From positions 992,001 to 1,056,000 of the forward strand of contig OZ287756.1 in assembly GCA_965649765.1 (NCBI GenBank): 64,000 bases of DNA, written 5' to 3'. This document shows positions 8,041 through 37,871 of the stretch, one piece after another (position 1 is the first letter of the stretch; each line of letters opens with the position of its first letter). The position numbers were made by a program, and so were the translations under genes. Under the pieces are notes generated by a model. It had not been told where the DNA came from and searched no databases. It worked only from the letters and a program-made list of their open reading frames with translations. This DNA is from Bispira polyomma. Lineage: Eukaryota.

Positions 8041-8224
8041 TGAAGTGAAGAGTGGTCTTACTTTTCCACAGGTTGTTGACACTTCAGCTTCACGTATGGT
8101 TCTGTTTAAAACTCCCTCTCTTTTTCCCCAAGTCTCACCATTCCCATTTGTAAACACCGACATCTCGCCGAGATCTCGCAAAGTGCGAGACTTCGCGCGA
8201 GATTGCCGACCGCGGCTCACTACA
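8041..8224 (-). repeat. 3' LTR of the non-autonomous element
   Basis: Direct repeat of 13710..13884, preceded by the PPT and followed by the TSD. Confidence 0.92.
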
Positions 8225-8798: not shown

Positions 8799-9676
8799 TT
8801 ATGATTTAGGGTTCCTTGCTTCCCGGGACACTTGCGATGACAACCTATTCCTTTCACCACATTGTGACTGTTGGTGAGGTCTTTTTGATAAAAGCTTCCA
8901 CACACTGGAGTTGTATGTGGTCTGTGGTTTCCTATACAACTCTTTAGATTCTTGGTTTCCATATCCAAAAAGATCCAACAAGTAGCTTAGTACTCGCCAA
9001 TGGATTAATGATGTGGCACAATTTGGTGGACTAACTGTTGGACAATATGGTAGATTATTTCCAGAAATCCAATATTGGAAATCCTTCATCAAAGCAAGAT
9101 CATCCTCAGATATGGCACATTTGGTTTTGGGAAACCATCTTCTTCTCAGCACTATTTGTAAGAGTCCATTTATTGAGAGACAACCCACATCTTTCGCAAC
9201 AAACAACAGAAGACTTTCATATTGCTTCATCTGTTCTTTAAGAGTCATTGCCGCCTTTGATGAAGTAAATCTAGGTAGATGCCTTCCTATGACATGTTTT
9301 TTTATGTGCGATGTTTCCACTTGACAATCACGGATAAAACAACACCTCTTCCTGGAATGATTTAGATTTGGTTGTATATTTCTCCTTTTATTCTTCCTAG
9401 CATCATCAGGTTGTGTTAAGTCTGTTCTGAGATTTTCATTTTTGAGGTAGCTTTTATTCCAGAATACTCTGGTTTTAACGGGAGAGTAAATATTTTTAGG
9501 CGAATGACAACTGCCACTCTTACCTTCCCCCTCTCTTCACCATTTAAATCTTCCTGCTGACTGCTACCCACAGTGCCTCCAACTTTGAAACATATATTTT
9601 TGCCACCATCGTTGGCAATACGTCCCAGTGGTTGGTGGGTTATGGCAGAGCAGTCCATAATTGTTACGGTCTCCAT
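8799..9676 (-). pseudogene. cargo ORF B: protein with a C2H2-like motif (frameshifted)
   Basis: The frame of ORF 8799..9320 stays open up to 9536 and gives RKRCCFIRDCQVETSHIKKHVIGRHLP (C-x4-C-x8-H-x4-H), then SPPNCATSLIHWRVL. Probably joined to ORF 9676..9416 at the C-run near 9530. Confidence 0.6.
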
Positions 9677-10677
9677 TGCACATGGACTTGTAACATTACT
9701 CTTGAATACTCTTGAAGACTCTCTTTCGGACCTGTATAACAGCTGCCTCCATATTTAGTTCCATTACAACAGGTGTACTCGACAATAATGGTTTGAACAG
9801 TGGTACACCCTTAAGGGTTTAGTAACGTAAACACAAAAACACGATGGCAATAAAGTATGATGCTTTATGAATGCTTATTTCTACTCTGTATAACAACTAT
9901 GATGGCTTTAAAAGTATACTTTAGTGAGATTTTTAACTATTTTTATATGTCCAAACTAATGAAAAGGTTAACACTTTACTATAAAACTATAAAAACACCC
10001 ATATAATGATTCTTGTATTGTAACGTCACACAATTTGAAAAACTATGTAGAACGTCATATCTGTAAACAAATCTCGCAGAGAGCCCTGTCTATTTTGACA
10101 TAATAAGAGTATTGATCCAGTTTATATCCGTACAAGATATACGCTACACAACTTTATAAAACATGTATATTATTTCTAGTGATTTACATTTTTCAATATG
10201 TTTCCTAACTTTATAAAAACAAAGAATATAAAAAAATCTTTCTGTTTAGAAGAGTGTAAGTTTAATATTTTTCTAAAATAAGCCCAGTTTTTGTGCTTTT
10301 ATTGAAAAACGAATTCATTCAAAATAATGCTGATGTTTTCCTTTTTCTAGTCATGTACAATACTTCAGTATTGATCCCTTCTTGGTATATAAATTGTGTC
10401 ACGTTTGTGAAGCATGTACTTTGAAAATATTACCCATTTTTGTTACAATTTAACACACTGCTATATGTATTGTATGTCTCAAGATACCTATTGAAATGAT
10501 ACATGAAAAATATAAATTAGTATATAATTAGAATATATGTCATTCTTTATTATTTCTACTCATGCAAATGTAAAAATGTTATCTATAAATCGACTTTAAG
10601 GCCACCCCCCAAAAAATGTGCTGTTTCTGAAAAGCTCAACCTCTCATAACGTGGTTATTGGCGATCGTTTTATGCGA

Positions 10678-11988
10678 TTACGTTACTAAAGCCTTAAATG
10701 GAGTTGAACATATTTGACTCCTTACTACCTCAGCATTTGCCATTGAAGAACTACAAGACAAACTTGATGCCTCCAACTGGCTTCCTAAAGATGAATTCAG
10801 GGAATCATTTTCACTATCTAACAGCAATGTGGAATTTAGTGCAAACCTTGAGCTGGATAGGGTAGATTCTACATCTGAGCCACATGACAGCAGGGATGAC
10901 ACTCATTGCCTTCTGAATCATGGTTAGCTTTATGTTTTCGGTATTTGTTGATTTCTCTCACCAGACCTCTTTTTTGCCGAATGTAAAGTTTATTTTGAGA
11001 TTCAAACTGCTGCTCCCCCACGACAATTTGTCGTTTCAACACCTTTAGTTCATGTTGTAGGTTTTTATTAATTATGCACAGCCTCTGGTTAGAATGGATG
11101 TCAGCACTAAGCTTTTCTTTTAAATCTGAGTTTTGCTGTTCTACTACCTTCAGGTTTCCTGTTAAAGCCGAAATTTGATTTGAAGACTGTTGAAAGCATT
11201 CTAAAACCCTCATAAGAGTTTGCCCATTCGATTGTATCGATTTAAAATGGGAATTTCTAAGTTCCTCCTCAACGGCTAGGTTTGTTGTCTTTAACTCATC
11301 TATTTTTCCTTCCTGGTCCTTACATTTACCTGCGAGGAAATCGAATTCCTTCGTCTAACTGACCAGTAACAGCTTCAATTTCTCTGAGCTTCTCTTTGTT
11401 TACCTCTGTCAACTTTAAGATCATAACCTCCTGATCTTTGCACTTTTCAGAGAGGAAATCGAATTCATTCATCTTACCCTCCAACTGACCCGGACCATTA
11501 ACAACTTCAACTTCGCTGAGCTTCCCTTGGTTCACTGCTTTCAACTTCAAGATTATGGCGTCCTGATCTTTGCACTTTTTGGAGAGAAAATCGAACTCAT
11601 TCGTCTTTCTTTCCAACTGACCTGAAATTACCCCTATTTCTTGAAGACTTTCCTTATTGGCCTTTCTCACATCAATAAGATCCTCCTCCATTAGTCTGAG
11701 TACTATCTGAAGAAATGTATCTTTACCTTTTCCCTTATCAAGCCCTGCCTTTACCTTTCTCGGGACATGAGAGGTATGAACATCCAGCACAATAAAAGAT
11801 AATGCCATCGCATCTTCCCTATTGCAATATTTACCAAGTTTGTTCTCCATATCCCTTCGCTGAAAGTCCTCTACTTTACAAGAGTGAGCTATGTCTGCTA
11901 ATTTTGAGTCATCCTCTTCTAAATAGTCACAGAAAGCTGCCCTTAGTTCCTCCTCAAATTTATCCCAGTCTACTGATATCTCTTCCAT
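10678..11988 (-). pseudogene. cargo ORF A: coiled-coil protein with three ~42-aa repeats and a Ser-rich tail (frameshifted)
   Basis: ORF 11988..11326 joins by a frameshift at ~11352 (third EFDFLxxKCKDQ repeat) into the frame of ORF 11213..10869. A probable second shift at ~10900 leads into the Ser-rich ORF 10902..10678. About 435 aa reconstructed. Confidence 0.7.
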
Positions 11989-13690
11989 TTTGAACTAGAA
12001 CATTAAAGTATGTTCACTGATTCTGTGAAGAGATATTTTAGTAAGATAACTTGCTAACTGTAATTATACCCACTTATGTCAAGGTTATTAAACCTCGTTT
12101 AACGAGTCAAGAATGACACAAGTTAGATGTAGAAACTTAGTCAAGGCCTTGAACAACTCAAATTACTGAGTCATGTGCAACCGTTACAAAGTTATGTTAA
12201 GCTAACAGCGAATCACAAGTAACCTATTAAACCAATCACAAAGTTGTGACTTTGCTCTAATTGAACTTCACAGTACACCTCGTATTGTTCATGAGTCACT
12301 GTCAGTCTTGATCAGCTGTTGTTGATTGTTTGCTGTTTGACAAGAAAGTTCACCAGATGTCTCAAATTGATAGCAATGTTTTTATTTTAATAATAATTTT
12401 CCCAGTAAGAATAAAAATTTCAAGATTATTCCAGTCGACAGCTTTGTTACTGTTATTTTCAAAATACCAGGTAGATATGTAAAAACTTACAACAAGATAA
12501 TATTCATTAGAATGGCCAAAGTATTATCCAGGAATTTTTAAGTAAGACCAATTTTCACCACAAGATATAAGATATAAACTCAACACCACAAAACACACTA
12601 CTAATTCTTCCACCTGGTTTAATCCAAGCAAACTCAACTAAAACTGGAAATATAATTGTGACTTTAGACAATAACCTCTTCTAATTTGATAAAGAGTTAT
12701 CTCAATTCAATAACCTTCCACAAAATATATCTGAAATCCGTGATGCAACTTTACAATCAACAGATGTATATCTCTATAAGGTAATGGACACTGCCACTCC
12801 TATAACTATATTTATTTTATTTTTATTTTCTCCTATAAATATAACTGTATCGATGAAATACCCTAAACCAGTACAATTTATTTTATCGACACTTGCGACA
12901 AACACCCTGATTTAGATACTGTGTATATGCTACAGCCAAATTATTTCACTAAGCAACAATGGAAAACAGTACCATAAAAACATCAACAGATTATCGCACC
13001 GAACGAACAGTACAAGCGTCAATGTATTAATGTTATGATAGCAGTACAATGGGTTCAAACAGTTTATACAAACAGAAGGGATGACGCCTCCGATTTTTAA
13101 CTGTATAGTTTAATATCTGTTGCTACTAATTTTATTAAATGGTATACTTCACTGCCTAGGCTATGGTACCAATTTATCTATTTTCATTCACTGGTACTTC
13201 ACCGCCAAGCACATTTGATATTGTATTTTTTATTTGTGGACAGGATAAAGGATTGATTACCTTCTGCTGTGAGTTTATTTTATTTGTTCATGAAATTCCA
13301 ATCACAAGAAAGAGGAATGTATTGCACCTCTTTCTGATTAGTTATTTATAAATTAAAAGTACATTTTACAACAGTCAGAAGTTTCAACTAAATCTCCTGA
13401 CTACAACCACAAATAATATAGATAATATTTCAAAAACACTATATATAAATTATATGTACTAAGTATATGGTATGTGAAGTAAAGGCACAGTAGCACAATA
13501 GATTCCAAGTACCACTGTCAGTACACTGAATAAAAATATGTGCTGTTCACGCTTCACTGCACACACACCAATATTGAACAATATTAAATAGAGTATAAAA
13601 TTCACAGTTATACCAAAACTGTGGAAAGAAAAAATATACTCTCCTTTATTTCAGTTGGAACCACCAGATACCTGTGGAGTATGAATATAT

Positions 13691-13709: not shown

Positions 13710-13884
13710 TGAAGTGAAGAGTGGTCTTACTTTTCCACAGGTTGTTGACACTTCAGCTTCACGTATGGTTCTGTTTAAAACTCCCTCTCTTTTTCCCCAA
13801 GTCTCCCCACTCCCGTTTGTAAACACCGACATCTCGCCAAGATCTCGCGAAGTGCGAGACTTCGCGCGAGATTGCCGACCTACA
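13710..13884 (-). repeat. 5' LTR of the non-autonomous element
   Basis: Direct repeat of 8041..8224 with TG...CA termini, followed by the PBS. Confidence 0.92.
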
Positions 13885-16592
13885 ATACTGTCAGAAAAAT
13901 TGGGGGCAAGTACATCAGTAACAGCAAGAACATGTTTTTCTCTTACTCTTATGGGCTGTAAAATACAGAGGGTTGTCTCTGTATAAATACCAATATTTAA
14001 CCTAATCTGTGAAGAAAACATGTTTTCAAAGTTTGTAAAGTTTGTATGTTTCATGTTGAAGAATGATCATTTCTATGTTAATAGAAATGCTAAACTTACT
14101 TTAAAATAAAGTGTTTCAATTTGACACTATCAAATATTTGTAATTGAACAAATCATATTTGTGAATGTAACTGTACCTCATTCTACTTATTTAAGTTTTG
14201 TATCAACTAAATAAATGTCGAGTAGAAACAATGTATTGAGTATTATATCGTTACATTATTAAATCAATAGTTGCACTAAAATTTGTCGTTTTTACTGCCT
14301 ATTCAAAGGATGCAGCTATTCTGACCTTATGTCATAAATGTTTGACCTTGGGTTATTAACTTTAATTAATTTCCGCAGATGTGTGAAGACTTCCAAACAA
14401 AACACAAGTGGTAGAACTACTAATCTTACAAAATACTACTAAAAGTCTGGAACTGGTGAAAATTTAAAGCCTAACGTCATTTATTTGTTTTTTATTGTTT
14501 TCAAGTTTCAATACATTCATTTACAGTGTCAAAACAGGTAGTTTACTGTGGGAAGTGTTTAGAACAACAAAGTATCGATCTGTAGCAAGTGTACTGCTAA
14601 CTTTCTAATGTACATGCTTAGTTCGAGATTTGAACCTGCAACTCCAAAGGTGGGAGGCGCGTGTTGCCATTACACCACCGAGACCCCTTTATGTTAATAA
14701 ACTATTTTTTGAGTAACATTACTGTTAATCTGTAAACTTGATCAACATTCACATTCCTAAAGCAAAACCACTATGATTCATCTGTCACACACTTGCTTTG
14801 GTATGCAGAGGACCATGCAGATACAGCCCAATACATAGATGACAATTTATATCTCTGTCATTGGATCCAACCCCATGTTTAGTGTGAAAACTAGGGACAT
14901 GATAAATGCTCATCTTTAAGCTTTTCTCTTCAGGTAGGAGAATAACATTACTGGTGCCGGATTGCTGTACTAGAGCTTTCAAAACAAAAGTTAAATAGCC
15001 CTTGAATACCAGATAAAAGTTACTACATAAGAGGACAAAGTGGAATACATTACAACACAAGTGCTCAGTATTTCAGCAAGAAAGTCTTGTGGATATAGCA
15101 CTCGTATCAGCTGAACTGTCATTTCAACAGATGATTTCTACAGCTTCTGGTACATGGTGACGCTGGGTTTGATCTTTGCTAAGTACCGAAATTGCTCGGA
15201 AACTTTTTCAGGACTAGAAATAATTTACTAAGCTAAAGTAATTTTTTTCTGAAATGACAAACTATTGTAATATCCGTGTATATCAGCACATTAAACACTC
15301 AGGCTTTTGGGGTTTCCTCTTTTTCTCAACTGTTAGTCTACTGGACAATTAATCTTAAAGATCCAAAGAGCCCCAGTTCTAATCCGAGTGACGGGAAGTT
15401 ATTTCTGTTCTTTACACTATAACAAATATTAAAGAATTTGTTAAATTTCTAGCTTAAAAAATAATAGAGATATCATAATTTAATCAATGTATGTTCACTT
15501 GAAAATACCAAGTTTTTTTGTACTTTTTATATAAAACATTTTCTTTTACTTCAGATATCTGCCAAATTGTCAATATTCAGTGGATTTTACTTCTGCAAAA
15601 ACAGTCACAAAAATTATAAATAGTGATGCAGAAAAACTGATAATAAAAATAACTACCTATGTCAGAATATGATAATAAGTATACAGGTTATTTAATATGG
15701 TAAGAGTTTGTATTAAAATATACTGGTATAAAATAGGCAAGATCAAACATTTACTGAATGGATTAAAATACAAGAAGAAAAACTGTGGAGATTTAATGTT
15801 CAATCTGGGTCCTGAAACGGCCAAGATAAATATGTGGCCGTTTTCAAATTACCAAGGTTGGCATTAGGGCAGTTACACACATACCCTAGCGCCTGTGGTG
15901 TATACTTGCAGTTGCTGGATTTTGAAAAAAAGAACGCCGAATATTTATTAATAGCCCAAATCTACTGCAGATAACAATTTCCTAAAAAATATGGCGTGAA
16001 AGCTCATTTTTTTGCCATCCCTGTGCTTTTTGTTGCATCAAAATCTGTTGAGAAACAGCCGAGATATTTAAGTTTCAATATTTTTATGACCAAAATTCCA
16101 TTAAAACTTGTTCTTACATAACATTCAATACATGCTATTCCCTTTACATGGCATTCCATTGGTGTCAAGTGCCATTCCTTTACATAACATTCCATTGGTG
16201 TCAAGTGAGGTATAGCAGTCCCTAAATTCCATTCCCACATCACATTCTAAATTCCATAAATACCTTCAAAATCCTAAAATTGCTATTGAAACTATATAAA
16301 GCTTAGTCCACAGACACACAGTTAGTTGAAGTGGAGGCTGGAGTGAAGCTAGAGAGAGCCTAATAAAGATTAGTGGGAGTCAGTTGGATTCATGTAACTG
16401 TTATGGTTACATCTCTTACTTGGATAATTATTATGTAAGTGTCGTGCTGTTTACTAATAAATGTTGTGACAGTGATCAAGTTTATCTTTTCTTGTCTTCA
16501 TACTTCCTTGAGATAAAAGATCCCAGCTGATATGGGGTTAAACTGATTAGCAAGAGGTCAAGACTGACCACTGAAAATAACCTCGTAACAAT

Positions 16593-16610
16593 TGGTGGAG
16601 ATGCCGGGTA
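16593..16610 (+). promoter_or_regulatory. primer binding site, tRNA-Ala-type
   Basis: TGGTGGAGATGCCGGGTA, 2 nt after the 5' LTR end. Confidence 0.85.
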
Positions 16611-16641
16611 TTTCATAAGAAGTCATGAGACATGGACAAAC

Positions 16642-18095
16642 ATGCAAGATAATATACAATCATCCGATGTTAGTTCTACCAGCTACCCTTACGCGGACAA
16701 CGAGACCACACTTTCTAGTATCAGGGCCTTTTCCATACTTAGGTCAAACGTCACCACTACTGCATGGACATATGGCTTCCCCTACTGTAAATTTCAAAGG
16801 GTAACTACCAAGAAAGTAACAACACATATCCGAGCAGAACATGGTTGCTACCCAGTGGCAATAGAAGTGTCCACAGAATGAATTTGAACTGTGCTGACAA
16901 CAGCAACTGCAATTTTAACTGCTTATAATTTTAATTTAGCATCCTGGAAACTCAAACAAAGCCTCCGAGGGTAACAAGTTACTATCACTTGAGGACAAGG
17001 ATGGCAAATCTAGATCTAATGGCTCAAAAATATTGAAGAATTGGGGGCTGAACTCCACCGACTCGCTAATCAAGGAGACGTACAGGGTGGGCTCCAGGAT
17101 CAGCTTCAACAACGACTTGCAGACCAAAGGGATCAACAAGAGGAATATCACACCCAGCTGCAGGAGGCTATTCAACAACGTGGACCTTTTCCAGAGACTG
17201 CTGCATTACGGCCTGCTCCTTATAGAAGAACTTCCAGTGAAGGTGCCAACCGATGGATGAAACGCTTTGTGAGTTATGCAGAGTACGGTAATATGAATGA
17301 ACATAGGAAATCAAGAATGTTTCGATTGCTTTTAGAAGGGACTGCAGAGGTTTGGTATGGGAGTTTGCCAGAAGATGTTTGTCAACATTGGGACGAAGTG
17401 CACACAGCATTCTCTGAGAAGTTTATAAATGCAAACAACCTGACATGGCTTAAGGAGCAAGGGCTTTTCTCAAGGGTACAATTCCCTACAGAATCAGTGG
17501 AGAGTTATATTACTGATGTGAGACAGAGATGTGACCAACTACAAAAAGGAGAAGCTGAGACCAGGAGTATCATCCTTCGAGGATTATTGCCTGGCATTAA
17601 AGATTTTGTTATAGGCCACCAGCCAGAAACAGTTGATGATCTTGAAAGCAAAGCCAGGCTGGCTGAAAGTATTGAGAAGCTCAAGCCTAAAGACCACCAA
17701 GGTTATAGAATAAATGTCTTACAAGAAAATCACCTTACAAAGACCTTACAAAGCTAATTGGAGAGCTCCAGGAAACTATAAATCAACAGAGGAGGGACAT
17801 GGTTTTTCTAAAGAGTAGCTTGACCAGGGATAAGCCCAATCAAAACACTGCACCAGGGAGAGGAAATTTCCAAATGTTCTGTAATAGATGTCAAGTTTAT
17901 GGTCACACTGTTAGTAACTGTGTGAGACGTCCTCAACCTGGAGATTTAGTGTGCTTCAAATGCAATAGAAGAGGTCATAATAAACAGGATTGTCCACAAT
18001 TTCAAAGAAAACAACAAGGTTTCAAGCAACAGGATGCTCGTTTAAACTGGAGTGCGCCTCAGGTGGGGTCTGGGGTGCAACAGAGGAGGTTTTAG
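16642..18095 (+). pseudogene. gag: Gypsy gag (frameshifted)
   Basis: Capsid-like region (LLEGTAEVWY...FSRVQFPTESVESYI) in 17041..17757. Two CCHC knuckles, CNRCQVYGHTVSNC and CFKCNRRGHNKQDC, in 17799..18095. The N-terminal start is uncertain. Confidence 0.9.
18041..18079 (+). promoter_or_regulatory. -1 programmed ribosomal frameshift signal (gag to pol)
   Basis: Slippery heptamer T-TTA-AAC in the gag frame, 5-nt spacer, stem TGCGCCTCAG/CTGGGGTGCA. The protease frame is -1 relative to gag. Confidence 0.8.
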
Positions 18096-21000
18096 TTGCT
18101 CTCACCCCTAAAGGCACCATCACCCCTAATGACAATACAACTAGTGGACTTACATTTTTGAAGTTGAAAAAGGATAATAAGAATGTTTATGCCTTGGTGG
18201 ATTCAGGCGCTACTACATCTCTGGCAGGACCTGAACTTTTATAGATGTTTCCCACACATGAAATACAACCATACAATGGATGCGCTACAACAGTTTCAAA
18301 AGAGGTTATAAATATTAAAGGGGTGATTCCATTTTCATTTAATATAGAAAGTCAGAACATTAGTTGGGAATTGAAGTATGTTACTTGCATGCCCTACCCA
18401 GTCTTACTTGGAATAGATTTCTTACAAGCATTCGGTGTGTGCTTGGACACGATTAAAATACCAAAGACACTTGATGTGTACATGCAAGCTGATTATCAGC
18501 TGAATCCAGGAGAAGAGACATTGCTTTATGGGACTCTAAAAGAACCATTAGATGTTATTGCTGCAGCAAAAATAGATCCCTGCCCTTTTGGAATTTTACA
18601 ATCTACCAATACGAGATGTGGTATTACCAACATCAAACCAAGAAATCCGCTAGTGCCAATTGAGCTAAGGAATACAACAGATATTCCTATGTGTTTTGAA
18701 AAGGGTGATTGTGTTGCACACCTGGAGGTGCTTGGAGAGAAGGATTGTGTACAAGTCATAGAGTCAAGTGGGTATGCTGGTAATTATGAGACCCAAACAG
18801 AAAACACCATTTCAAGACAAGAATTTGAAGAACTGTTTAAATGGAGCAATGGTTCGCTTTCCGAGTCGCAAGAAAGGCAGTTAAAAGATGCTCTGTGGGA
18901 TTATAGAAACCTTTTTCAAGTACCAGGGAAAGAATTAGGATGTACCCATGTTCTTAAACACGAAATAAACCTAGGACCGGGTAATAGAACATTTAGGTCT
19001 GCTCCAGCAATCGCAGCAACCCAAGAATAAGAGATGAAATATCACAGCAAGTACGAGATATGAGTGAAAAGGGAATTATACGACCTTCTTGTAGTCCATA
19101 TGCTTCACCGGTGGTTATGGTTGAAAAGCCAGATGATTCCTGGAGATTTTGTGTGGATTATAGGATTCTAAATTCGAATACTATACCAGATAGTTATCCA
19201 ATAGCTCGGGTGGATGATTCTTTGGAATCTTTGGGAAGTTCAAAGGCCTCATATTTTTCTACTCTTGACTTGGAGAGCGGATATTGGCAAATCGAGATGG
19301 CTCAAGAATCCAGGCCACTGACTGCTTTTGTCACTCATGATGGGTTATATGAGTTTGAAAGAATGCCTTTTGGATTGCGGAATGCACCTTCTACGTTTCC
19401 AAGACTTATGACAAGTGTGCTCCAAGGTCTTTTATGGAAAATTTGCCTGGTCTATCTTGATGATATTATCATTTATTCACAGACTTTTGATGAACATTTA
19501 GAAAGATTGAAAATTGTTTTTGATAGGTTAGAGGCTGCAAATCTCAAATTAAAACCAAAGAAGTGTGTGTTCGGTTGCTAGAAGGGGCGATTTGTAGGGC
19601 ATGTAGTTAGTGCAAAGGGAGTAGAGCCCTTACCAGATACTTGCAAGGTTATTCAGGAATTCTCAACACCAACAAATCTTAGAGAATTACGCAGTTATTT
19701 AGGAATCACAAGCTTTTATCGTCGGTTCATAAAGAAGTACTCAGAACGGGTCTTACCCCTATCAGAACTTACAAAGCAAGACACTCCATTTGTTTGGGGA
19801 GAAGCTCAAGAAAGATCTTTCCAAGATTTGAAAGATGCTTTGGTAAATCCCCAATACTAGCTTACGCCAGATACCAGCAACCATGCATACTGTATACTGA
19901 TGCTAGTGGCCATACAGCTGGCATGATCCTTAGCCAGATTCAAGATGGAAAGGAGAGGGCTATATCTTATGCTGCAAAGAAATTCACAGATGCAGAGAAG
20001 AAATATGGTATCTCAGAACTTGAAGCTTTAGCTTGTATACTTGGAGTGAAACATTTTGAGCCATACCTAAAAGGTAATAAGTTCAAGATAGTGACAGATC
20101 ATATAACCTTAAAGTGGCTCTTTGATCAAAAGAAAACAACTGGTAGAATTGCAAGATGGGTTACCTATCTCCAACAGTATGAGTTTACTATTGAACATAG
20201 AGCAGGCAAGAAGTTGGGTAATGTAGATGGCCTGAGTCGGCAAAATGGTGTTCTACCAAGAGAAGACAATGATCTTGAAGTAATAGATGAAACTATCCTT
20301 CCGCCATTGACTGATGTGCCCAACTACTCTTCAAATCAGTGCACAAAAGAAGGCAAGTTACTGAATGATCAAGAACATGTAAAAGACATGTCTGTTGGTG
20401 AAGCGGTCTTTTAAATATCTGACCAGGACAAAACAGTATCTGATGACCATCAACAAAATTCCACCAGTAATAGCCCCACAAGACAGACCATTGAACAACA
20501 GCATCAGGGTATGTCTGCAATGACAAGGAACCCCTGGATAAATCGACCAAAGGCCCTTGGCGATATCAGACCTGACCTATCTACTGGCGAACTACGTAAA
20601 CTACAAGAAGCAGATCAGCATATTAACTCAACTCTACAATATTTGGAAGAGAACGTGTTACCACCTAATGCAAGAGAGGCTCGTCGATTGGCTATTACAA
20701 GTCAAAATTATGAAATCATTGATGATGTGCTATATCATATATGGTACCCAGATGGTTTGGGAACAAATGGAAGACTGATATTGCAGTTAGTGGTACCCAA
20801 AAGTCTCACTCATGATGTCTTAACAGCATCACATGGGGATGTTTCTGCAGGGCACTATGGAATACGGAAACCTATCAGACCTTGAAACTATATTATTATT
20901 GGGCAGGTATGATGCGAGATGTTACAAACTGGGTTCAATCCTGCCACCTTTGTACTACTACTAAGAAGCCAACCAAACCATACCGATCTAATCTCCAACC

Positions 21001-22304
21001 ATTGTCTTGTTTCCGCCCTGGTGACTGCTGGGCCATGGATATCCTAGGACCACTAAAAGAAACTTACTCTGGGTCAAAATATATATCCTTGTTTTCCTTG
21101 ATTATGCTACAAAGTGGGTTGAAGCTTTTGCTATTCATGACACCAAAGCACATGTCATAGCTCGACTTCTTGTTGATGAAATAGTATTTCGCTTCTCAGC
21201 TCCGAGGAAGTTATTGTCAGACCTTGGAAGTAATGTTGTGTCCCGTGTTGTTAATGAAGCAGCTCAGTTGGTAGGAACACAACGACTTGTAACCTCTCCA
21301 TTCCATCCCCAAACTGATGGTGCAGTTGAAAGATTCAACTACTCTCTGGTAAAACAACTAACTACACTTGTGGATGCTAGGGACAGGGACTGGGACAGAT
21401 TTATCAGACCTGTGTGCTACGCATATAACACCACAGTATGCAGTGATACAACACACTACCAACCCTTTTATTTGATGTTTGGGAGAGAACCATTTAGCCC
21501 AATCAGTACTACCATGCCAAGTTTTCAAATACAAATGATAAAGCCTACATTAAAGAAATGGTCCAGGGGTTGGCATTTTCCCATGAGGTAGTACAGGAAA
21601 ATATAAAACATCACAAGGAGAAAATGAAAGAACAATATGACAAAAAGTCATATTCTATTGAATATGAAGTGGGACAGCGTGTCTGGGTGTACTTTCCTTC
21701 TATGAAAGTGGGAGAAATCAGAAAATTTCATAGGAAATATGAAGGCCCTTTTATAATTGTCAATCAAGTACATGAAAAGAATTATAAACTTGTGAGGGCC
21801 CATGATCTGAAACCTTTGAAAAACATGGTACATGTTAACAGATTGAAACCATATGTATCTAGGGATGTCAAACCACCAATTGATGAAGAACTAGATGAAC
21901 TGTTAGGTACAAAGGTTACTGAGGAGGATATTGATGAAATCTGGAGTGACACAGAGCAGGACCGACATACTGTGGATGTAACAGAAACTAATATGGACAC
22001 ACCTCTTTCAGATATCTTTCGTGAAAAGGAAACTAATGAAGCTAGTGATGACCAGGGTGATGCTCAACTGGAGGGAGATCCCCTTGAAAATAGTACTCTT
22101 AACCTGACAGCTAGCAGTACAGGAAGACCGGACCAGATAGAGCAAAATCTAGCAAATAGTATGGAGCCAATAGCACAAAGTCTAGAACAACCCAAAAATA
22201 TTGAATCAGTGTTACAGCGGTCAACTCGACAAAGAAGACAAAGATTTCCACTACTAGACATTGTGGAAGAAGACAGTGAGTCTGGATCAGACTCTGATAA
22301 AGAA

Positions 22305-22499
22305 TAAGTTGTAAACCGCATAATAAAAGGAAGGTATAATAAACATGGGGACTTAGAATATTTAATTGATTTGAAGGATTACCCTTCAGAAGCTCACACT
22401 TATGAACCTTATAAGAATCTTAATAGTGTGGCTAGGGAATATATTGCTACTCATAATGTACCCATATGTGGTACAAAGCCCAAAGTCAAACAGCTCTAG
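22305..22499 (+). other. integrase C-terminal chromodomain, not in the ORF track
   Basis: In frame after the TAA at 22305: VVNRIIKGRYNKHGDLEYLIDLKDYPSEAHTYEPYKNL, matching the chromodomain pattern Y.V..I......EYLV.W..Y......WEP..NL. Confidence 0.8.
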
Positions 22500-22582
22500 A
22501 TTACCTGTCATTAAGTTGATTTTCCTTCTATTTTGCAGTGACCAAAAGAAGTGTTGGTGTTGCTAGTGTCAAATCAAGAAAA

Positions 22583-25083
22583 ATGAAGATGATGTTTTGG
22601 ACTACTCTGCTACTTGGTTATCTGGGTTTGAAATCCGCTACTTGTGATGGGAATGCTATTATAAGAGAAGACATGGGAGTTGTCTTCAAACATGTAGCAA
22701 GTGTAGAAAAGTTTGCTTCATCGTCACACAGTTGCTATAAAGTTAGCAACCATGGATGAGCTCAGGATACAGGATCCATTTTGTCATAGAAAATGGGATA
22801 TTGAACATAAAAAGTTCATGAGTAAACTTTGTGAGATGTATTCTCCGATTTTTGAGACATATGATGACGTCAGAAACCTCCTGGCCAGAGGTAAGCTGGA
22901 AAAATTCCTGGGAGTGAGGAATTTAAAGAGCAGAGTAGCCAGGTCTCCTTTTGACTTTATTGGAAGTATTTCGAAGAGCTTGTTTGGCACTGCTACATCA
23001 AAAGATGTTGATCTATTGAAACAACACATAATAGCTTTAGAAGAACATCCTGAAAATTTCAGTGGATTCCGGAAATTTGCAACAGAATTGTTTTCTATAC
23101 AAGTTACAACCAACAAGAATTTTAAAATTGTTCAAGAAGGTATCAACTCCAATAGAAGATTAATCAACTACACCATTCAAGGAATGGGAAATTTAAGGGA
23201 CTCACTTAAAGATTGTTTTAGATGATGTCAAAGCCCACATCGAACTCTTGAGGCAGGTTATTGCAATGATGCATGGAATAAATTCACGAGAAATAAGTAC
23301 CATGCTTCTGGTGACAACAGAGCTGGAAAAGTTCATATCAGGATGTGACTCTCTACTACGAGGATATATTCCAGTACAAATTATAACCCCACATGATTTG
23401 AAGGATATCCTAGATAATGTATCTAGCTATTTACAGTTGCATTATCCTAATTACCAGATAGTTTACAGGCAGCCAGCAAGCTATTATCAAATGTCTGGAA
23501 TAATTACATATGCCACCACTAAGAATCATTTATTTGTCAAAATTAAAATTCCTTTGAGTACCAATTCAGTTTTGTTTGATGTCTTTAGAGTGAGTAGCAT
23601 CCCAATAAGTTTCGGTAGAAACAATATATCGTTTACTAAGGTTAAGGGGCTACCAGATTATTTAGGGATCAGTAAAGATGCAATGTTTTTCTCTGAAATT
23701 GACAAAGTTACTTTTGATAGTTGTGAAGGTATTACTCTTAAACGCTGTAAGGTTTCTTAAAATTTATACAGTAGAAATGATTTAACATGTGCCAGTGCAA
23801 TGTATTTAGGGCATAAGAATAAGATACAGGATGAATGCAAAGTAATATTGTATCCAAATACCTCAACTATTCAAACCCACGTTATTGATCTAGATCAGGA
23901 GAGAGTTTTTGTTAGCACAAATGACAACAAGTGGATAAAAAGTTGTACAAGACAACCTCCACAGGTTTTAGAAGGATGTAGAAATTGTATCATTAAACAG
24001 TGTGAATGTTCCATTAAGGGTAGCTCTCTGTATATTGCCCCAAGCATTGAAGCATGCTCAAAGAATCAGACTAACCACTTTGAACTGGTACCAAATTATA
24101 TGGCTGCCCTGTCATATTTTAAGCATATAGATTCTGAGTTGCTGTTGAATGTTAATAATACTTTCTTCAGGAAGGTATTAGCATCAACAGTTAATTTCCC
24201 TGACATTACTCTGTCCAAGAGCCCTTGGGTACAAAAGACACTTGGCTTACAAAATAGGGAACTAGCCCTAGATTTACATAGTGCTCTTACAACAATGCAG
24301 GATAACCAAAGTTTATTTATTGACCCCCTTGATGCTTGGTTAGATGACATGTCAACTTTACCTCAATCCTCCCATTATATGATAAGCTTCGAACTGATTG
24401 CTTTCCTAGCACTAGGACTAAGTGTAGCTTTAAGTCTTGTTTTAAATCTAAGCATGAGGAGGCACCTAACATCATTGGAAAAGACTATCCACAGAAGAAT
24501 CCCTGAATTATTGGCACTAAGTACTTGTATGCCCCGTACTGCAGCACAGGAAGCCTCTTGCACTAGACAGAGAAACCTAGAGCTATATGTAGTTTCATTA
24601 TTGACTGTAGGTATTGTGACTATTGTCGTGTATCAACTAGTTAAGTGTATAAAATATGTTTTGAGGCCAGTACTTAATAATTCTGCCGCCCTTACCAGAG
24701 CCCTAGACTCCCAGAACACTCTGGTACAGTTGATTCTCACAGATTTACAAAAGACACTGTCTGTTACAGTTCTAAGATTACCCATCCCTATTGCTGAAAT
24801 AGTTTATTCCAACCCTAAGCATACAAACCATTTGTCTACAAGATTTCCTTATCTGGAAATAGATTGGAATACCCTGATTATTTCATCTAAAACGACAGGT
24901 CAACAGATTGTCCTTCCAAATGAGGTGAACTTGGGATTTCTTAACTATTTTAGATACACCCAAATAAAAGCCAGACCAATGATAATGAGAGTCATTCTAG
25001 TAAACTCACTACGGTCTGTGACCATTATGCAGCAGGCTATAAATATCCCCCTTAAGAGAAGTGTCACCATAAGTTCTTTTTGA
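22583..25083 (+). pseudogene. env: env, baculovirus-F/errantivirus-like fusion glycoprotein (2 frameshifts, 1 stop)
   Basis: Signal peptide MKMMFWTTLLLGYLGL; RVAR|SPFDFIGSISKSLFGTAT cleavage site and fusion peptide; heptad region; Cys-rich ectodomain with N-x-S/T sites; TM LIAFLALGLSVALSLVL. Preceded by splice acceptor TTTCCTTCTATTTTGCAG (ends 22538). Confidence 0.88.
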
Positions 25084-28000
25084 AGAAAATATACCTCCAC
25101 CATCCTCCATCTGTGAGCGTGACGATATTCCCATATGAAAATGGTTTTAATCAGCTATCCTAGTTCATTGTGGTGATCTTGTCACAACATGGAACAAAAA
25201 GGGTGACAACAGCATGTATTATTTAAGGTTACTTTATCACTGTAGTTCAATCCTCAAATAGTATTACCACTCCATCTTGATTGCCAATTCACAAGGACTA
25301 CTCTTATAGTAATTTGCATCTACCGTAATTTTCGTTGCCAGTAATTAACTAGCCCATGCCTGGGATAGTTTTGGTAAAAGGTTTATTTTGTTGTGGCAAA
25401 TGTCATTGCATTCCTACAAATCATGAATGCTTATTATCAGACCAATACCATCTGTAATGCAAATATTCCAGCACTCCTGCAGTAATTTAGGGTCAGCATT
25501 TCCCAGATGTTCCAATGTGACACAAATAGTATATAAACCCAATCTGGATTATCTACATTCCCCTATTCCCTGTGACGGACTCAATTATCATACTTAGAAA
25601 GCTCGCAATAAACAAGAATACTAAATACAATTCCATAACACTTCTGAAGCCTCACTACTCATTAACCTGATAATACCATCTGGAATGAACCTACCAGAGA
25701 TGTGAAACGACATATACAGAATACTAAACCATGTAATCAACTGTTATTAGGCTCATCTCGTGTAGCCATGCCTATACACATTCCTAGGATTGGGATTCAC
25801 TTTACAAGCTAATGTGCTTCAATTTATATATTTAGACACTATATGTATTGGTGTAGCTGCTGTGTTGCATGTATGTAAAAATGTATATTAGTGGTAGTTT
25901 AGCTATACACATATATATGTATTTAACATTTAAAAAAAAAAAAAAAAATCAAGAAAACAGGGTAAAACAATTTTTTTTTATAAATTTAAAGCCAGTCTTA
26001 AAGTGTTTCTCCAAGCAGAAGCTACCCCCCTTCGGGTTGTATATCTACTCATCTCTGTCCCAAATGAGGCAATCAGTACTACTAATAGAGTTTGCATGTG
26101 ATAAATTTTTGGAATGTGAGTAAACAAATTTTGGCAATTAATAACGGTCATGGGACCATCATCAACAGAACAATCTATAGCTAAAAGGTTTTTTAGACGT
26201 GACTATTATTTGTTCCTTGATTGCACTGTGTCTATATAAGGGAAACTTTGGGATGTCAGATTCCCATACACATTCTTGAGCATCTATAGTGTACACTCAA
26301 TACTGGAGAAGAGCAAAACAAAGTAAAATAAAGTTAACACTTGTGAAGTAAAATAGTATACAAGTTCTTGTTTAAAACAAAGCTGTTGTTTCAAAAGTGT
26401 TGAGAAAAAAAAAGGGGGGACAAAATAAATATCCAAGGACACCACAAAAGGTATGTGCAGATGTATTTCATAAATAAGGTAGTATGTATATGAATATGAA
26501 TAATTCAATAAGGACTTTATCTGTATTCAACACATAAGGCCTAACTTGTAAATTAAGTAAATTTGTAATTGTTTTCATAAAAAGGACAGAACGGAGGGTA
26601 ATTGTTTAATTATATAATAATAATAGATTTGTACATTTATGTTTGTGTATTTAAATACAGTATATAAATACATGTTTCGGTATGTGCTTGATTAGTTGCA
26701 TTCAGTGTTTTGAAACCTATACCAATAGCTATGATATGTTATAATAGGGAAATATAATAATTCTGAATAATAAGTGATCAATGGGGTTCTCTTTGCGCGA
26801 AAAAAAAAAAAAAAAAAAAATGTGTGTGTTTATCTTCCAAGTAGTACAATGTAATTCAGTGTACATTATTAGTACAGGTTTTATACCGTCATTATAATAA
26901 CATATAATAGATAACTTTTACATCATATTTTATAAGTGTTGTTTAATCATATATTTCAAGTTTAATGGTCAATGTCATAGAAAGGTTAGTGAGTTATAAT
27001 CATCGGCATGTTGTATTAATAGGGTAGTTTTCTGCTATATACTTATGAATGTGTGTGTATAATAATATAATATTTGGTTTCCCTGTTAAAGAGGTGTATC
27101 CATTAAGCCATAAAGGTGTAAGTATTTGCTTTTTAGGTTACATCTCTTACTTGGATAATTATTATGTAAGTGTCGTGCTGTTTACTAATAAATGTTGTGA
27201 CAGTGATCAAGTTTATCTTTTCTTGTCTTCATACTTCTCTGAGATAAAATATCCCAGCTGATATGGGGTTAAACTGATTAGCAAGAGGTCAAGACTGACC
27301 ACTGAAAATAACCTCGTAACAATACGCATACCCCTCTTTTCTGGCTTTTTTGGAGTGGGCGAAAATATAGGATTTATTTGCAAATAAGCTGGTTAAATAT
27401 TGTGTCACACAACAAAATTTGTGTAATATAATAAGAATAATATATAAATTATTTAAAAAATATATATATTCCCGATTTGCCTTTGTTAAGCTTTGGTAAG
27501 TACTATTTAGACATTATTCCAATTGTCTAGTCAGATGTTTTAACACTTTATATGTATGAATTAGTTCTCTCCAGTGTGGGTAACATTACCTGTTTTATCA
27601 AACACTCTAGATTGTTACGGAATGGAGGTGTTCTTGTGGAAAGTTAAGGTAGGTTTTGAAACACACTTCTAGACATTCCAATCTGATTTATACTGTAAAC
27701 GGAATATTGGAAACACACTAGTGGAGGTCCCACCTATTATAGACATTCCACAACAAAAGTTGTCTTAAAAAAACACAGGCAGTGTGAAATACAGTGATGT
27801 TTGTGTTCTTGTAAACTTGGGAGCCGTCCAAGTCTGAGATCTTGCTCCAAAATTTAGTATCGACGTAATGTAAATTAAGTCTTTTGTTAGTGATTAAAGT
27901 ACGGCACAATTCCACACTAACGCCTTTTGTGTTGGATCTCTATATTCCAGTGTGGCGTATGAATATGTAGAAATTCTACCATGTCTTTCATTTCCATGTG

Positions 28001-29137
28001 TGTTATGAAACAAAAGGAATAGTACCAGCAGGCACCTCGCCATTTTATTTTAGTGTATCTTATCATACTATATAGTATAGTGGTATGTTATTGTTATTTT
28101 TGCACATAAACGGGAATGCCAGCACATACAATTCAAAAGTTTTATACTCAGGTATGCTTGGCACACCTAAAAAAATTAATCTTACACGTCTCAGTCTTAC
28201 CAGGTCTTAACCAATCCATCAAGGCAATTTCCGACATGGTCGCACTATTGCCCGAATGAAAACAATATCAGGAAAATGCACGTATTTACTGACATTTTTA
28301 GGTATTATGTACATTTACTGACCAATCAGTGACTATGTGTAATAACTGGTCACACAGATTCACTGTAACGCGTATGTAAATAGAAAAAAAGTACATCAAA
28401 AAGATTGCTGCTGACATGAACAATAACTTTTAGACTTTGGATTAGTAAACATTTTGTATCCCCCTTTTATTCCAAATATTTTCTACATATTTTGCAAGAT
28501 ACTTTAACTTACAAGTCATACATTGTTCATCTAGAAATAATGTTCATCAAAGGAGACACCTTTCAGTCATCCTTGGCATAGTTTGATTCTATATTGTAAG
28601 CTTGTCACCATACAGGGAATCCAAGATGAAGTCATTGCAAGAAACATTAGATTTACTTTTACTTGTTTAAATCTACATGTGTTTAAAGGGAAGATATGAA
28701 ATATGTATACTATCGTGACAAAATATCAATATGTGTTACAAAACAATCTACTAATTTAAATTTTATAGCCAACTCAGGTAAGTTTAGGCAAAGTTGATGG
28801 AATAGCCAATTTAAAAGCAAATTTACAAATAAATGTAAAATAACAAGTTTAAATAATAAACTGATAAAATTTATTTTGTATTTGAAGAAGGTTTTTCTCT
28901 GATGGTCAAAAGACACTTAAATGTTTGTTGTCGATTCTAATTGATTTATAAGAATGGTCAAATGTGCAACTACACAAACCCACATTGGTGATAGGTCAGT
29001 GATTGTAAAGCAGGTGCTTCTAACACACTGGCCCACTGCAGTCAAAGTCTTCGGTATATCCATGGTTTTTTACTGGTTATTTCCTTCAACATACGCAAAT
29101 GCCAAATAAGATAAACACAGTAATGTAACAGACTCAC

Positions 29138-29339
29138 CTGTCTGCATGGTGAAGATAATGACTGCTGAGGTAAGGATCCAGCTGGCGTCCCGGGCTGTAA
29201 TCTCCACCAGATCCCCGGTACTGTTGGGATTTTGTTGGACTGGCATGGCTGGTGTACACAAAGTTAAGTTACCACTGTTGTCATGGAAACAGGTCCAAGT
29301 AGAACTGATTAGGTTGACTGGGGTGCTGTTGGTTGCCAT
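29138..29339 (-). CDS. amt: ammonium transporter (Amt family), first coding exon
   Basis: MATNSTP...DASWILTSAVIIFTMQTG is typical of animal Amt TM1. The exon ends at canonical donor ACAG|GTGAGT. No downstream exons were recognised in the window. Confidence 0.85.
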
Positions 29340-30549
29340 AGCAACCCTCTGTAATAGACACAAGCATGGTGATGTGTTTGTTTTACTTCACAGTCTTTGT
29401 TCTTGTTTTTCTTCATTTTAATTTAACAAAAAAAAACACACAAATATATCACAAAACTACTGATTACAGCATCACTGATCTGTTTCTCTCTGCCCCTTTC
29501 ACTGGTGTATGTAATTGACGTCTGTTTAAGCCCGCCCTTTTTGGTAGGTATAAAATCCCCTGGTTGAAAAAAACGCAAGCTGATACAAGAGGGTTGACAT
29601 CAAAAAGACACACAACACACACACAGGGAGACAAGCATCACTAATAGATTGACAGGGAGTAGCACATTACCTGAATGATGAAAAAGACACGCCAAAAGCT
29701 ACTGTGATACTCCACCCGGAACTTACACGCAGTGCTCATCTAACACTTGCTTGGCATGGCTTACTAGTCTATTGTTTTATAGATCCTGGTCAAACCTCTT
29801 TATAAATAGGCCAGTCGTTAAGTAAGGAAAGACACCCCCCCCCCCCCACTCTTATTGGAAAAAAACAAACAATTGTAGGTGTTTGGTGGGTGTGTGTGTT
29901 CTAAATATAATGGGGGTTGTACCAGTCACATAGAGAACTCTACAACACCAAAGTCTGTAATGGTAGTAAGGGGTAGTTACTGATATAAACATAACATTAG
30001 GAGTGTAACTTACTAATGAGCCTTTTCAATCCATTTTGGGGGTAATTAGAATACTTAGACACCCATTTCCCCCTAATGGGTCGTCATTTGTTTCTTACAG
30101 CAAATTAGTCCAGTAAGAAACCGTCAGTCTTTGGTACAGTTTGAATAGGATTAGTTTTACAGTTAGAAAACATCACTGTCATTGAGGGCAAAATCCTTTT
30201 TATTGCCTGAGAGTGTTCTGTGTAATAGAACTGCCATATGACCTCTAATAACATGTCGACAACTGAAAGTTTAGTTATATACACATACTCAAGAAAATGC
30301 TTTCTTTTTAACCAAATACATTAAATATACTGTGCCAAATATACTTTTGAATAGCATTGCCTAAATAATTTTTTCATGTACTGCACACTATAATTTTCAC
30401 TATAATTATTTTTATATTATTGTATTAAATTACAATTTCTGTGTATTTGTGCTTAGAATCAAATTCGTTGTTTTAATATGGACTGACATATTCAGATTCT
30501 AAATATAAATATTTTTGTTTATTTTTGTCTGAAATAAAGTTATTGTTAT

Positions 30550-35600: not shown

Positions 35601-37871
35601 CCCAAGATATAACCGAATGAACAAAACACACTAAACTTTGAAAGTGCTAATTTTTAGTCACTATGTTTCTTTGTCTACCTGGGTGACCCAAGCTGAGATC
35701 AAACCCAGGTAGCCTTCCTTTACTTTTCACCCACTGTGCCACATTTAAATCACTTTGTTCATGTGTAGTTGGTTTGTTCTCTTCTCTAAGATTTGAGATT
35801 GATGACTTAGGCGGACAGTGTACATGGCAGAAAGACTTTGGTTATGATGAAGGGCAACCTTGTATACTACTGAAAACTAACAAGGTCAGTGCTTGAAGTA
35901 TTGTATACTACTGAAAACTAACAAGGTCAGTGCTTAAAGTATTGTATACTGTTTAAAACTAACAAGGTCAGTGCTTAAAGTATTGTATACTATTTAAAAC
36001 TAACAAGGTCAGTGCTTAAAGTATTGTATACTATTTAAAACTAACAAGGTGATTACTTAAAGTATTGTGTACTATTTAAAACTAACAAGGTGAGCGCTTA
36101 AAGTATTGTGTACTATTTAAAACTAACAAGGTCAGTGTTTAAAGTATTGTATACTATTTAAAATTAACAAGGTCAGTGCTTAAAGTATTGTGTACTATTT
36201 AAAACTAACAAGGTCAGTGCTTAAAGTATTGTATACTATTTAAAACTAACAAGGTGAGCGCTTAAAGTATTGTATACTTTCAAAAACTAATAAAATAATA
36301 AAGTGGATGTTTAGATAGATGTATTGAGACTACAAAAAAATATCGGTTTGCCAAGGAATGTATTGTGTATTACTTCGGCAAGTATTTCAAGAGATGAACT
36401 ATGTACTATTCCAAAATTACTAGATAGTGTGTAAATAGATATACAATAAGGTATTGTGTTCAAATCTTGGTATGTAAATATCAGTTTATATACATCATCC
36501 AAGTTGCTGAAGTGTGCATATGTTTGTTGAACATTTGTGTACAAATAATCACAAAATCTTCAGTAAATTCAGGGGTGGTATTCACAAAAGGGCTGGGTCT
36601 GAGACATGGTTCTAAATCTAGCACAAAAGTATGCTAGATCTAAGACATGGTCGTAAATCTAGCACAAAAGTATGCTAGATCTAAGACAAAGTTATCCCTT
36701 AGCCCTTTTGTGAATACTGTGGCAGGTATTTGACAATTCATCCAAGTGTGATGACGTCCCATGCTGTGGTGTTTACTAGGTGATTGGCTGGAGACCTATA
36801 CCATTTGACAGTCTGGATGAGATTGCTGCCATAGATCCTGAGGCCGCAGAGTGGTTACGTCACAATGGACAGTTTGATACAAGACATCTACCTGTTACCT
36901 GTAATGGACGGGTGTGTAATGCTCTCTAGTTAATGCAAACTGATTGCTGATTATAGTCAGTGGAATAAGTCTTAATCTTTGCTAAATTATGTCTGACAAA
37001 AATTAAGAAAAAATTTACTCTTTTCTTGCAAAACATAACCATATCAGTAATGTAAGATTTTAACACTAATGATGCGCAAAATTAAGTATAAAACCCCATA
37101 TGTTGTTTACTATTTATTTACTATTTACTATTACTATTTATGTTCAGTATGGGTCTCTGTCCTTTTGTGTTTTAGTAGGTCCCATGCTGCTTTTGTGTTT
37201 GTGTTTTAGTTTGATTCCTGCCTTGTATTGTATTTTAGTATATGATGGGATGTCTTGTGTTTCAATATGATCCCTGACTTTTGTGTTTTAGTATGACCTG
37301 TTATGACTTTGTGTATGACTTATACTACTTTTTGGCTTTAGTATTACCCCTACTTGTTTCGTGTTTTAATATAAATCACATTTCATGTTTAAGTATGATC
37401 TATGTTTTGTGTTTTAGTATGACTTCTGCTTTAATATGTGACTTTCTATGGCCCCTGCTTTTTTGTGTTTTAGTACCATCCCAGCATTGTGTGTGTTTTA
37501 CAATGATCCTTGTATATCTCATTTTTCAGTAACACCCTGGTCTTGTTTTGTGTTTTAGTGTGATCCTTGTTTTGTGTTTTAATCTTTTTGGTCTTTATTT
37601 CATGTTTCGTGTTTTTCTTTGTGTGTTTTAGTATGACGCAGACATTGAGAACTTTGGTAACATCACGCTCTACCCTAAGACGGGGTTCAATGGCGACTTC
37701 TTCCCTTACCTCAACCAGGAGGGTTACAGATCGCCACTGGTCATGTTAAAGTTCATCAGACCTATTAATGGAGTGGTCATCAATGTGATGTGTAAGATCT
37801 GGGTGAAGAACATCCAGCATATACCTAATGATGGGGTGGGAGTCATAACGTTCTCTTTACTGGTGGACTGA
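32682..37871 (+). CDS. atp1b: Na+/K+-ATPase beta subunit, 7 exons, 320 aa
   Basis: Exons 32682-32841, 33533-33673, 34500-34610, 35393-35477, 35791-35884, 36780-36911, 37632-37871: all GT-AG, phases consistent, 963 nt. Motifs: TFLG, LLYLAFYG TM, PGLSYRP, FGYDEGQPCILLK.NKVIGWRP, FFPYLNQEGYRSPLV, six ectodomain Cys. Confidence 0.95.
33325..33500 (-). mobile_element. L2-type LINE/SINE 3' tail fragment
   Basis: CACCTTAGAATCC...GAGATTAAGCGCTATAAAAGATTAGATTAG resembles the LINE tail at 59250..59310. Confidence 0.55.
33646..33985 (+). repeat. 38-39-bp tandem array duplicating the atp1b exon 2 end and splice donor
   Basis: About 8 units of GATGAGTC.CCACT.AG.AGTCTG.CAG|GTGAGGAACA, degrading distally. 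Confidence 0.9.
34631..34884 (+). mobile_element. full-length tRNA-derived SINE with TSD
   Basis: A box TGGCCTAGTGG, B box GAGTTCGAATCCC, TSD ATCGCTCACTA (34620-34630 and 34885-34895). Inserted 20 nt downstream of the atp1b exon 3 donor. Confidence 0.88.
35860..36292 (+). repeat. 41-bp tandem array (~10.5 copies) duplicating the atp1b exon 5 end and splice donor
   Basis: Unit TGTATACTACTGAAAACTAACAAG|GTCAGTGCTTAAAGTAT; the first copy is coding. Confidence 0.95.
36570..36725. mobile_element. short MITE with an internal 39-bp duplication
   Basis: 17-bp inverted repeat GTATTCACAAAAGGGCT (36578) / AGCCCTTTTGTGAATAC (36701). Confidence 0.75.
37140..37636 (+). repeat. degenerate array of splice-acceptor-like units upstream of atp1b exon 7
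   Basis: Many TGTGTTTTAG|TATGA-like copies; the last one is the functional acceptor at 37631. Confidence 0.8.

Follow-up and report, generated by a model that had tools for sequence, protein, structure and literature searches.

Does the retrotransposon at positions 16082-27321 of a stretch of the Bispira polyomma genome owe its interest to the pairing of an integrase chromodomain with an F-type envelope gene (env), or to something else that its family carries? The window, i.e., the whole stretch analyzed, comprises 64,000 nucleotides (GenBank assembly GCA_965649765.1, contig OZ287756.1, positions 992,001 to 1,056,000 of the forward strand). An earlier sequence-only reading of it had put the pairing forward as unexpected. 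The combination is already known, because Chary and Hayashi (PMC13524379) describe chromodomain-bearing errantiviruses with an F-type env in molluscs, annelids, and cnidarians; with the same work, the premise of an F-type env as the hallmark of insect errantiviruses is out of date. The likely new part is a cassette of small open reading frames (ORFs) behind env. As a whole, the locus is a dead copy of a multi-copy Ty3/gypsy family with an integrase-chromodomain protein and an F-type env, and extra helper proteins are likely encoded behind env in this family.

Probable accessory ORFs behind env

A genome search with the window element returned 11 other matches, eight of them at 93-95% identity, and the sibling comparisons rest on 10 of the 11. 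In six of eight close siblings, three ATG-started ORFs lie between env and the 3' long terminal repeat (LTR): A (108 amino acids), B (150 amino acids), and C (129-131 amino acids), each full length and free of stops in five of the six cassette-bearing siblings. The cassette is absent from two close siblings and from the window copy, where its former place is marked by one feature:

26810-26823: junction of a ~1.9-kb deletion, by which the window copy lost A, B, and C; siblings retain them, e.g., at L014:4657-5884

The two siblings without the cassette lie on different chromosomes and share a deletion with identical breakpoints, unlike that of the window (region corresponding to L014:4013-6302). 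As the two are inserted at different sites yet have this deletion in common, A, B, and C are not needed in cis. None of the sequencing-run contigs placed on the 3' end of the element spanned the deletion junctions, and the runs listed included none of RNA.

We regard A, B, and C as very likely real accessory genes of an errantivirus lineage. Two other families, with an env of 32-34% identity, have relatives of A and B in unchanged order and enclosed by an LTR pair; protein identity is 24-28% for A and 24-26% for B. Against diverged relatives, differences at the three codon positions number 56/42/93 in C (P 8e-6) and 19/12/30 in A (P 0.0075), a third-position bias; three non-coding controls gave P 0.1, 0.26, and 0.56. 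The corresponding ratios of nonsynonymous to synonymous substitution (dN/dS) are 0.26 for C and 0.32 for A; gag gives 0.36, pol 0.44, and the controls 0.62-0.69.

Several observations weigh on the other side. Three of nine close copies have lost the cassette, and the two siblings whose env frame is open are among them. For B, the codon-position counts in the close family (13/10/18) are not significantly biased (P 0.1), and a dN/dS of 0.56 for B compares with 0.62-0.69 in the controls. Among young copies, dN/dS values of 1.48, 0.69, and 0.90 for A, B, and C give no selection signal, these counts sharing one reference and thus not being independent. Profile, word, and cross-family searches found no relative of C outside its family, and no acceptor-like motif occurs within 400 nucleotides upstream of A, B, or C in the close family. 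Furthermore, the linkage of B to env in other assemblies rests only on matching contig sizes.

Some of these points would suit an ordinary three-gene errantivirus in which A, B, and C are chance frames of a long 3' untranslated region: the young copies lack a selection signal, the cassette region has been lost repeatedly, and none of the three ORFs matches a Pfam family. Such frames would have had to hold their order, their reading frame, and, in B, cysteine motifs at 24-28% identity in three families, and the third-position bias of A and C, the 13 outside relatives of B, and its confidently modeled fold (described below) also speak against them. We therefore consider chance frames distinctly unlikely.

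Slightly less credit still is given to the cassette as a passenger, i.e., a captured host or viral segment of no use to the elements. Its dispensability in cis would agree with this, as would the different ORF set of a fourth lineage, in which nothing matches B significantly (best E 0.24), and the additional 306-amino-acid cysteine-rich ORF of one family. A passenger would, however, be expected to decay; A and B have diverged as deeply as env, and, by tree and contig size alike, the outside protein nearest to this family's B belongs with the nearest outside env. Real accessory genes thus remain the preferred reading.

Searches of Pfam, PDB sequences, and the Atlas gave no usable match for A, B, or C; Atlas matches of accessory ORFs to DUF6698 had low recognition value and were not used. 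The profiles of A and B matched none of seven metagenome env loci, most of which are short. An 84-amino-acid ORF after env was rejected as a gene, with a dN/dS of 1.2 against older copies and a poly-A tract inside. In the literature searched, with subscription journals, Repbase entries, and the figures and GitHub files of PMC13524379 outside its scope, no env-downstream cassette was found in gypsy elements.

Relatives and Fold of ORF B

A profile search with B retrieved 13 outside proteins, nine of them at E <1e-10; ten of the 13 were looked up. Seven of the 30 members listed lie on contigs that match in size a contig with an env or chromodomain-pol relative, and one such contig measures only 16,123 bp. 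The 17 aligned B relatives share a CxxC motif and additional cysteines, which suggest that B may bind zinc, and their N-terminus is variable and of low complexity.

The structure model of the B protein from another family is confident over residues 90-180, with a predicted local distance difference test (pLDDT) score of 85-98 there. In fold searches, eIF1 was matched with Z 6.4 (root-mean-square deviation 2.6, 72 aligned residues), tied with unrelated folds; aIF2-beta reached E 0.037, and viral eIF2-beta/eIF5 proteins made up seven of the top ten matches (best E 0.006). No fold match reached E 0.001 or Z 8. The eIF1/SUI1 and eIF2-beta/eIF5 Pfam families were matched by none of the 17 B members, and the B profile scored 9.9 against three host SUI1 domains, a value equaled by 28 of 100 shuffles with a shallow profile of low power. 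By its model, B would weakly resemble eIF1/eIF2-beta, a lead only, since the fold is common. An unlikely extension of the preferred reading, in which the elements are complex invertebrate errantiviruses with conserved accessory genes, is that B, as a zinc-binding alpha/beta protein, would be a captured eIF1/eIF2-beta mimic steering start-codon choice or re-initiation on the multi-gene RNA of the element.

Other Families in the Genome

Beyond the close siblings, 22 more distant chromodomain loci were found and 17 examined; in 14 of the 17, the chromodomain has an env behind it. These chromodomain and env loci represent at least four families, and seven of them have the same Ala-type primer site. 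The reverse transcriptase (RT) tree contains no named reference sequences, and its deep nodes are unresolved.

The fourth lineage, with a chromodomain and an F-type env of ~21% identity, has its own ORFs after env, of 168, 176-177, and 156-192 amino acids (C9:17.46 Mb, C9:17.49 Mb, C1:94.9 Mb, and C2:31.7 Mb; L069-L074, L079). They are unrelated to A, B, and C and have no Pfam match; the last one appeared B-like by eye, which was rejected after comparison with B gave E 0.24-0.8. The 306-amino-acid cysteine-rich ORF precedes A and B in its family (L060:3582-4499), has fragments at two other loci, and likewise lacks a Pfam match.

The Envelope Gene

Two features of the window concern env:

22520-22538, plus strand: splice-acceptor-like pyrimidine tract and AG, 44 nucleotides upstream of the env ATG, with a putative function in splicing
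22583-25083, plus strand: F-type env, broken by two frameshifts, one stop, and a short deletion

The encoded protein has a signal peptide, a basic cleavage motif, a fusion-peptide-like stretch, two hydrophobic segments, and a C-terminal domain. The F-type env that the sequence-only reading had placed after pol is borne out, with a qualification on the proposed profile search: the two env pieces of the window stay below the Baculo_F cut-off (21.3 and 20.1 versus 24.1 bits), and the natural env frame of a sibling passes it with 40.8 bits (E 1e-10). Among ten env relatives, six of them named Mytilus, an invariant arginine is followed by a conserved hydrophobic stretch; the nearest named relatives are those of Mytilus. 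A fold search returned paramyxovirus and pneumovirus F proteins first (respiratory syncytial virus, Newcastle disease virus, henipavirus; best E 6e-6), with low TM-scores and from a low-confidence model. The poor quality of that model (mean pLDDT 48.6, predicted TM-score 0.26) counts against the assignment. The F type is indicated by the Baculo_F match, the basic cleavage site followed by a hydrophobic stretch, and the paramyxovirus-F-like fold of this low-confidence model.

Window positions 24375-25083 encode the two hydrophobic segments and then a beta-rich domain of ~110 amino acids (pLDDT 55-82), an arrangement common to the Mytilus relatives.

The earlier view that env belongs to the same element also held. 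It starts 83 nucleotides after pol, both lie inside a single LTR pair, and env occupies the same place in the 14 of 17 distant loci mentioned above; a separate insertion of env was rejected on its position in those loci.

Chromodomain, Linker, and Stop

The end of pol comprises three features:

21858-22304, plus strand: acidic linker of 149 amino acids after the integrase SH3/GPY-F region; similar linkers occur in outside relatives P0001-P0004
22305-22307, plus strand: premature stop at the first aromatic-cage position, private to the window copy by sibling comparison
22308-22499, plus strand: chromodomain and end of the pol frame, by Pfam and PDB matches

The linker holds 40 D/E against 14 K/R across its 149 amino acids. 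The sequence-only reading had described a pol ending in a chromodomain behind a premature TAA and a ~150-amino-acid acidic linker, and profile comparison of 22305-22499 agrees with it: Pfam Chromo matches 22308-22496 with 32.5 bits (cut-off 25.1, E 8e-8), and the PDB matches are CDYL and LHP1 chromodomains (best E 3e-5). The chromodomain is in the same frame as the integrase C-terminus before the stop.

Could the stop be a switch for programmed read-through, by which integrase is made either with its chromodomain or lacking it? Its position exactly at the domain boundary would fit such a function. It is, however, absent from all nine scorable siblings (10 fetched), integrase, linker, and chromodomain form continuous proteins in outside relatives, and the stop is one among many lesions of the window copy. 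Since nine of nine siblings lack it, the stop is decay; read-through was rejected and, taken together with a separate env insertion, is exceedingly improbable. The integrase C-terminus and the start of the chromodomain share a single frame in four of the nine siblings.

Of 29 other loci given, three had no match and 26 were scored for the chromodomain; 22 of the 26 have an aromatic residue at all three cage positions. Judged by these residues, the family chromodomain is of the group I type; in the decayed window copy, two of the three positions are damaged and the group I cage is not preserved. The group I chromodomain of MAGGY binds histone H3 di- or trimethylated at lysine 9 (H3K9me2/3), as reported in PMC3350952, and by analogy with MAGGY the family chromodomain may target chromatin.

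Boundaries and State of the Window Copy

The window copy is a Ty3/gypsy element on the plus strand with gag, RT, RNase H, integrase, chromodomain, and an env-like gene. Sibling alignment sets its start at 16082 and its end at 27321. The end agrees with the sequence-only reading; the start of 16405 given there does not stand, as that reading had caught only the 186 bp common to the 5' LTR, which begins at 16082, and the shortened 3' LTR. The remaining features are as follows:

16078-16081: left 4-bp target-site duplication; three of four bases match 27322-27325
16082-16590, plus strand: 5' LTR of ~509 bp, by alignment to sibling TG...CA LTRs of ~520 bp
16593-16608, plus strand: primer-binding site of the tRNA-Ala type, complementary to the 3' end of that tRNA; the matching motif is present at the end of host tRNA-Ala genes
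16935-18095, plus strand: gag with a capsid-like domain and two CCHC knuckles (Pfam Retrotrans_gag and zf-CCHC); broken, in three pieces versus the sibling frame
17984-22499, plus strand: pol with protease region, RT, RNase H, integrase, and chromodomain; broken by five frameshifts and at least four stops
27136-27321, plus strand: 3' LTR remnant; ~430 bp, including the LTR front, are gone at 27133/27136

LTRs with TG...CA ends, gag, and the pol order RT-RNase H-integrase place the element in Ty3/gypsy (Metaviridae), and an env-like ORF 3' of pol within the LTRs makes it an errantivirus by the operational definition of PMC13524379. Perfect 4-bp duplications flank five of six siblings examined. 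At loci of the primer motif in the host genome, a tRNA was present at none of the first eight and then at three of four further loci. The stretch between protease and RT (18245-19027) is possibly the remnant of a dUTPase-like domain, to which an outside relative has a weak match (E 0.004) and the window piece has none.

With its many stops and frameshifts and its shortened 3' LTR, the window copy is dead. The search for intact copies suggested earlier had a mixed outcome: no intact copy is offered by the window, and env is open over 889 codons in two of ten siblings, besides the four with a single integrase-chromodomain frame. The LTR pairs of five siblings measured differ at only 0-8 of ~520 sites, and the family has therefore moved recently. 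The gag and pol frames of siblings overlap, pol being -1 relative to gag.

Proposed Working of the Family

In a functional copy, RNA would start in the 5' LTR and be translated into Gag, with Pol likely produced through a -1 frameshift, and reverse transcription would likely be primed by tRNA-Ala. The chromodomain, on its long and flexible acidic tether, likely binds methylated histone H3 and may thereby bias integration. Env would be made from a spliced RNA and cut at the basic motif; as a class I fusogen, it could then carry the element from cell to cell. Infectivity and chromatin targeting, as the sequence-only reading had them, are putative traits, and the copy it described is itself dead. 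For A, B, and C, a role in trans is likely, with regulation of expression or of host defence as the putative function.

Elsewhere in the Window

A 171-bp direct repeat, 97% identical and 5.7 kb apart (8041-8211 and 13710-13880), surrounds minus-strand ORFs at 8802-11994 without a Pfam family, possibly another mobile element. On the minus strand, 51016-51543 is an exon-like match to the ligand-binding domain of neurotransmitter-gated ion channels (E 2e-15), and 29073-29387, without a Pfam match, resembles, by eye, an N-terminal exon of an ammonium transporter. Minisatellite arrays lie at 917-1332 (period 52 bp), 35778-36351 (41 bp), 42325-43683 (~44 bp), and 47102-47933 (34 bp).

Comparison with Known Systems

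The family shares the gag-pol-env order, a chromodomain C-terminal to integrase, the F-type env, and a non-insect host with the ancient errantiviruses of PMC13524379, and its chromodomain position is that of the clade defined there; through the pairing found here, that published group gains only one more host. In PMC13524379, the ancient errantiviruses are further characterized by a "mini" domain that comes after RNase H in the bridge region. The supplement of that paper marks 28 of 139 elements as chromodomain-bearing, the nine whose env type was looked up being all F-type, and the chromodomain clade is placed basal to, not inside, the chromoviruses. A tRNA-Ala primer site is also assigned to its elements Mare_1 and Gmag_4. 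A term search of the main text gave no mention of accessory or extra downstream ORFs. Between the LTRs, Mare_1 measures ~8.6 kb and Gmag_4 ~9.3 kb, versus ~12.2 kb in the cassette-bearing siblings, and the two therefore likely have no room for such a cassette.

As in the chromovirus MAGGY, the chromodomain follows the integrase C-terminus and has all three aromatic positions; unlike the chromoviruses of PMC3350952, the family has an env, a tRNA-Ala site, and 4-bp duplications, those of the plant elements there being 5 bp. In the bdelloid rotifer LTR elements of PMC5408684, the ORF3s are, according to its abstract, alternatives in third position, whereas several ORFs are present here in addition to env, without sequence match to any family.

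A Baculo_F-type env after pol, likely spliced, is shared with the gypsy-type errantiviruses of Drosophila. The gypsy element itself is known for env splicing and infectivity. Unlike gypsy, the family has a chromodomain, small ORFs after env, and an Env of ~890 amino acids whose two hydrophobic segments and C-terminal domain are common to Mytilus relatives. Cer1 (CERV) is reportedly another LTR element with an additional ORF beyond gag and pol.

A, B, and C are defined orphan proteins whose partners can be sought, and with copies that have and lack the cassette coexisting in one genome, its role is open to comparison by expression, age, and copy number. Complex retroviruses carry 3' accessory genes, and the layout of env followed by small ORFs resembles that of foamy viruses or deltaretroviruses. 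If true, conserved post-env genes would extend the term "complex", as used of some vertebrate retroviruses, to these invertebrate elements.

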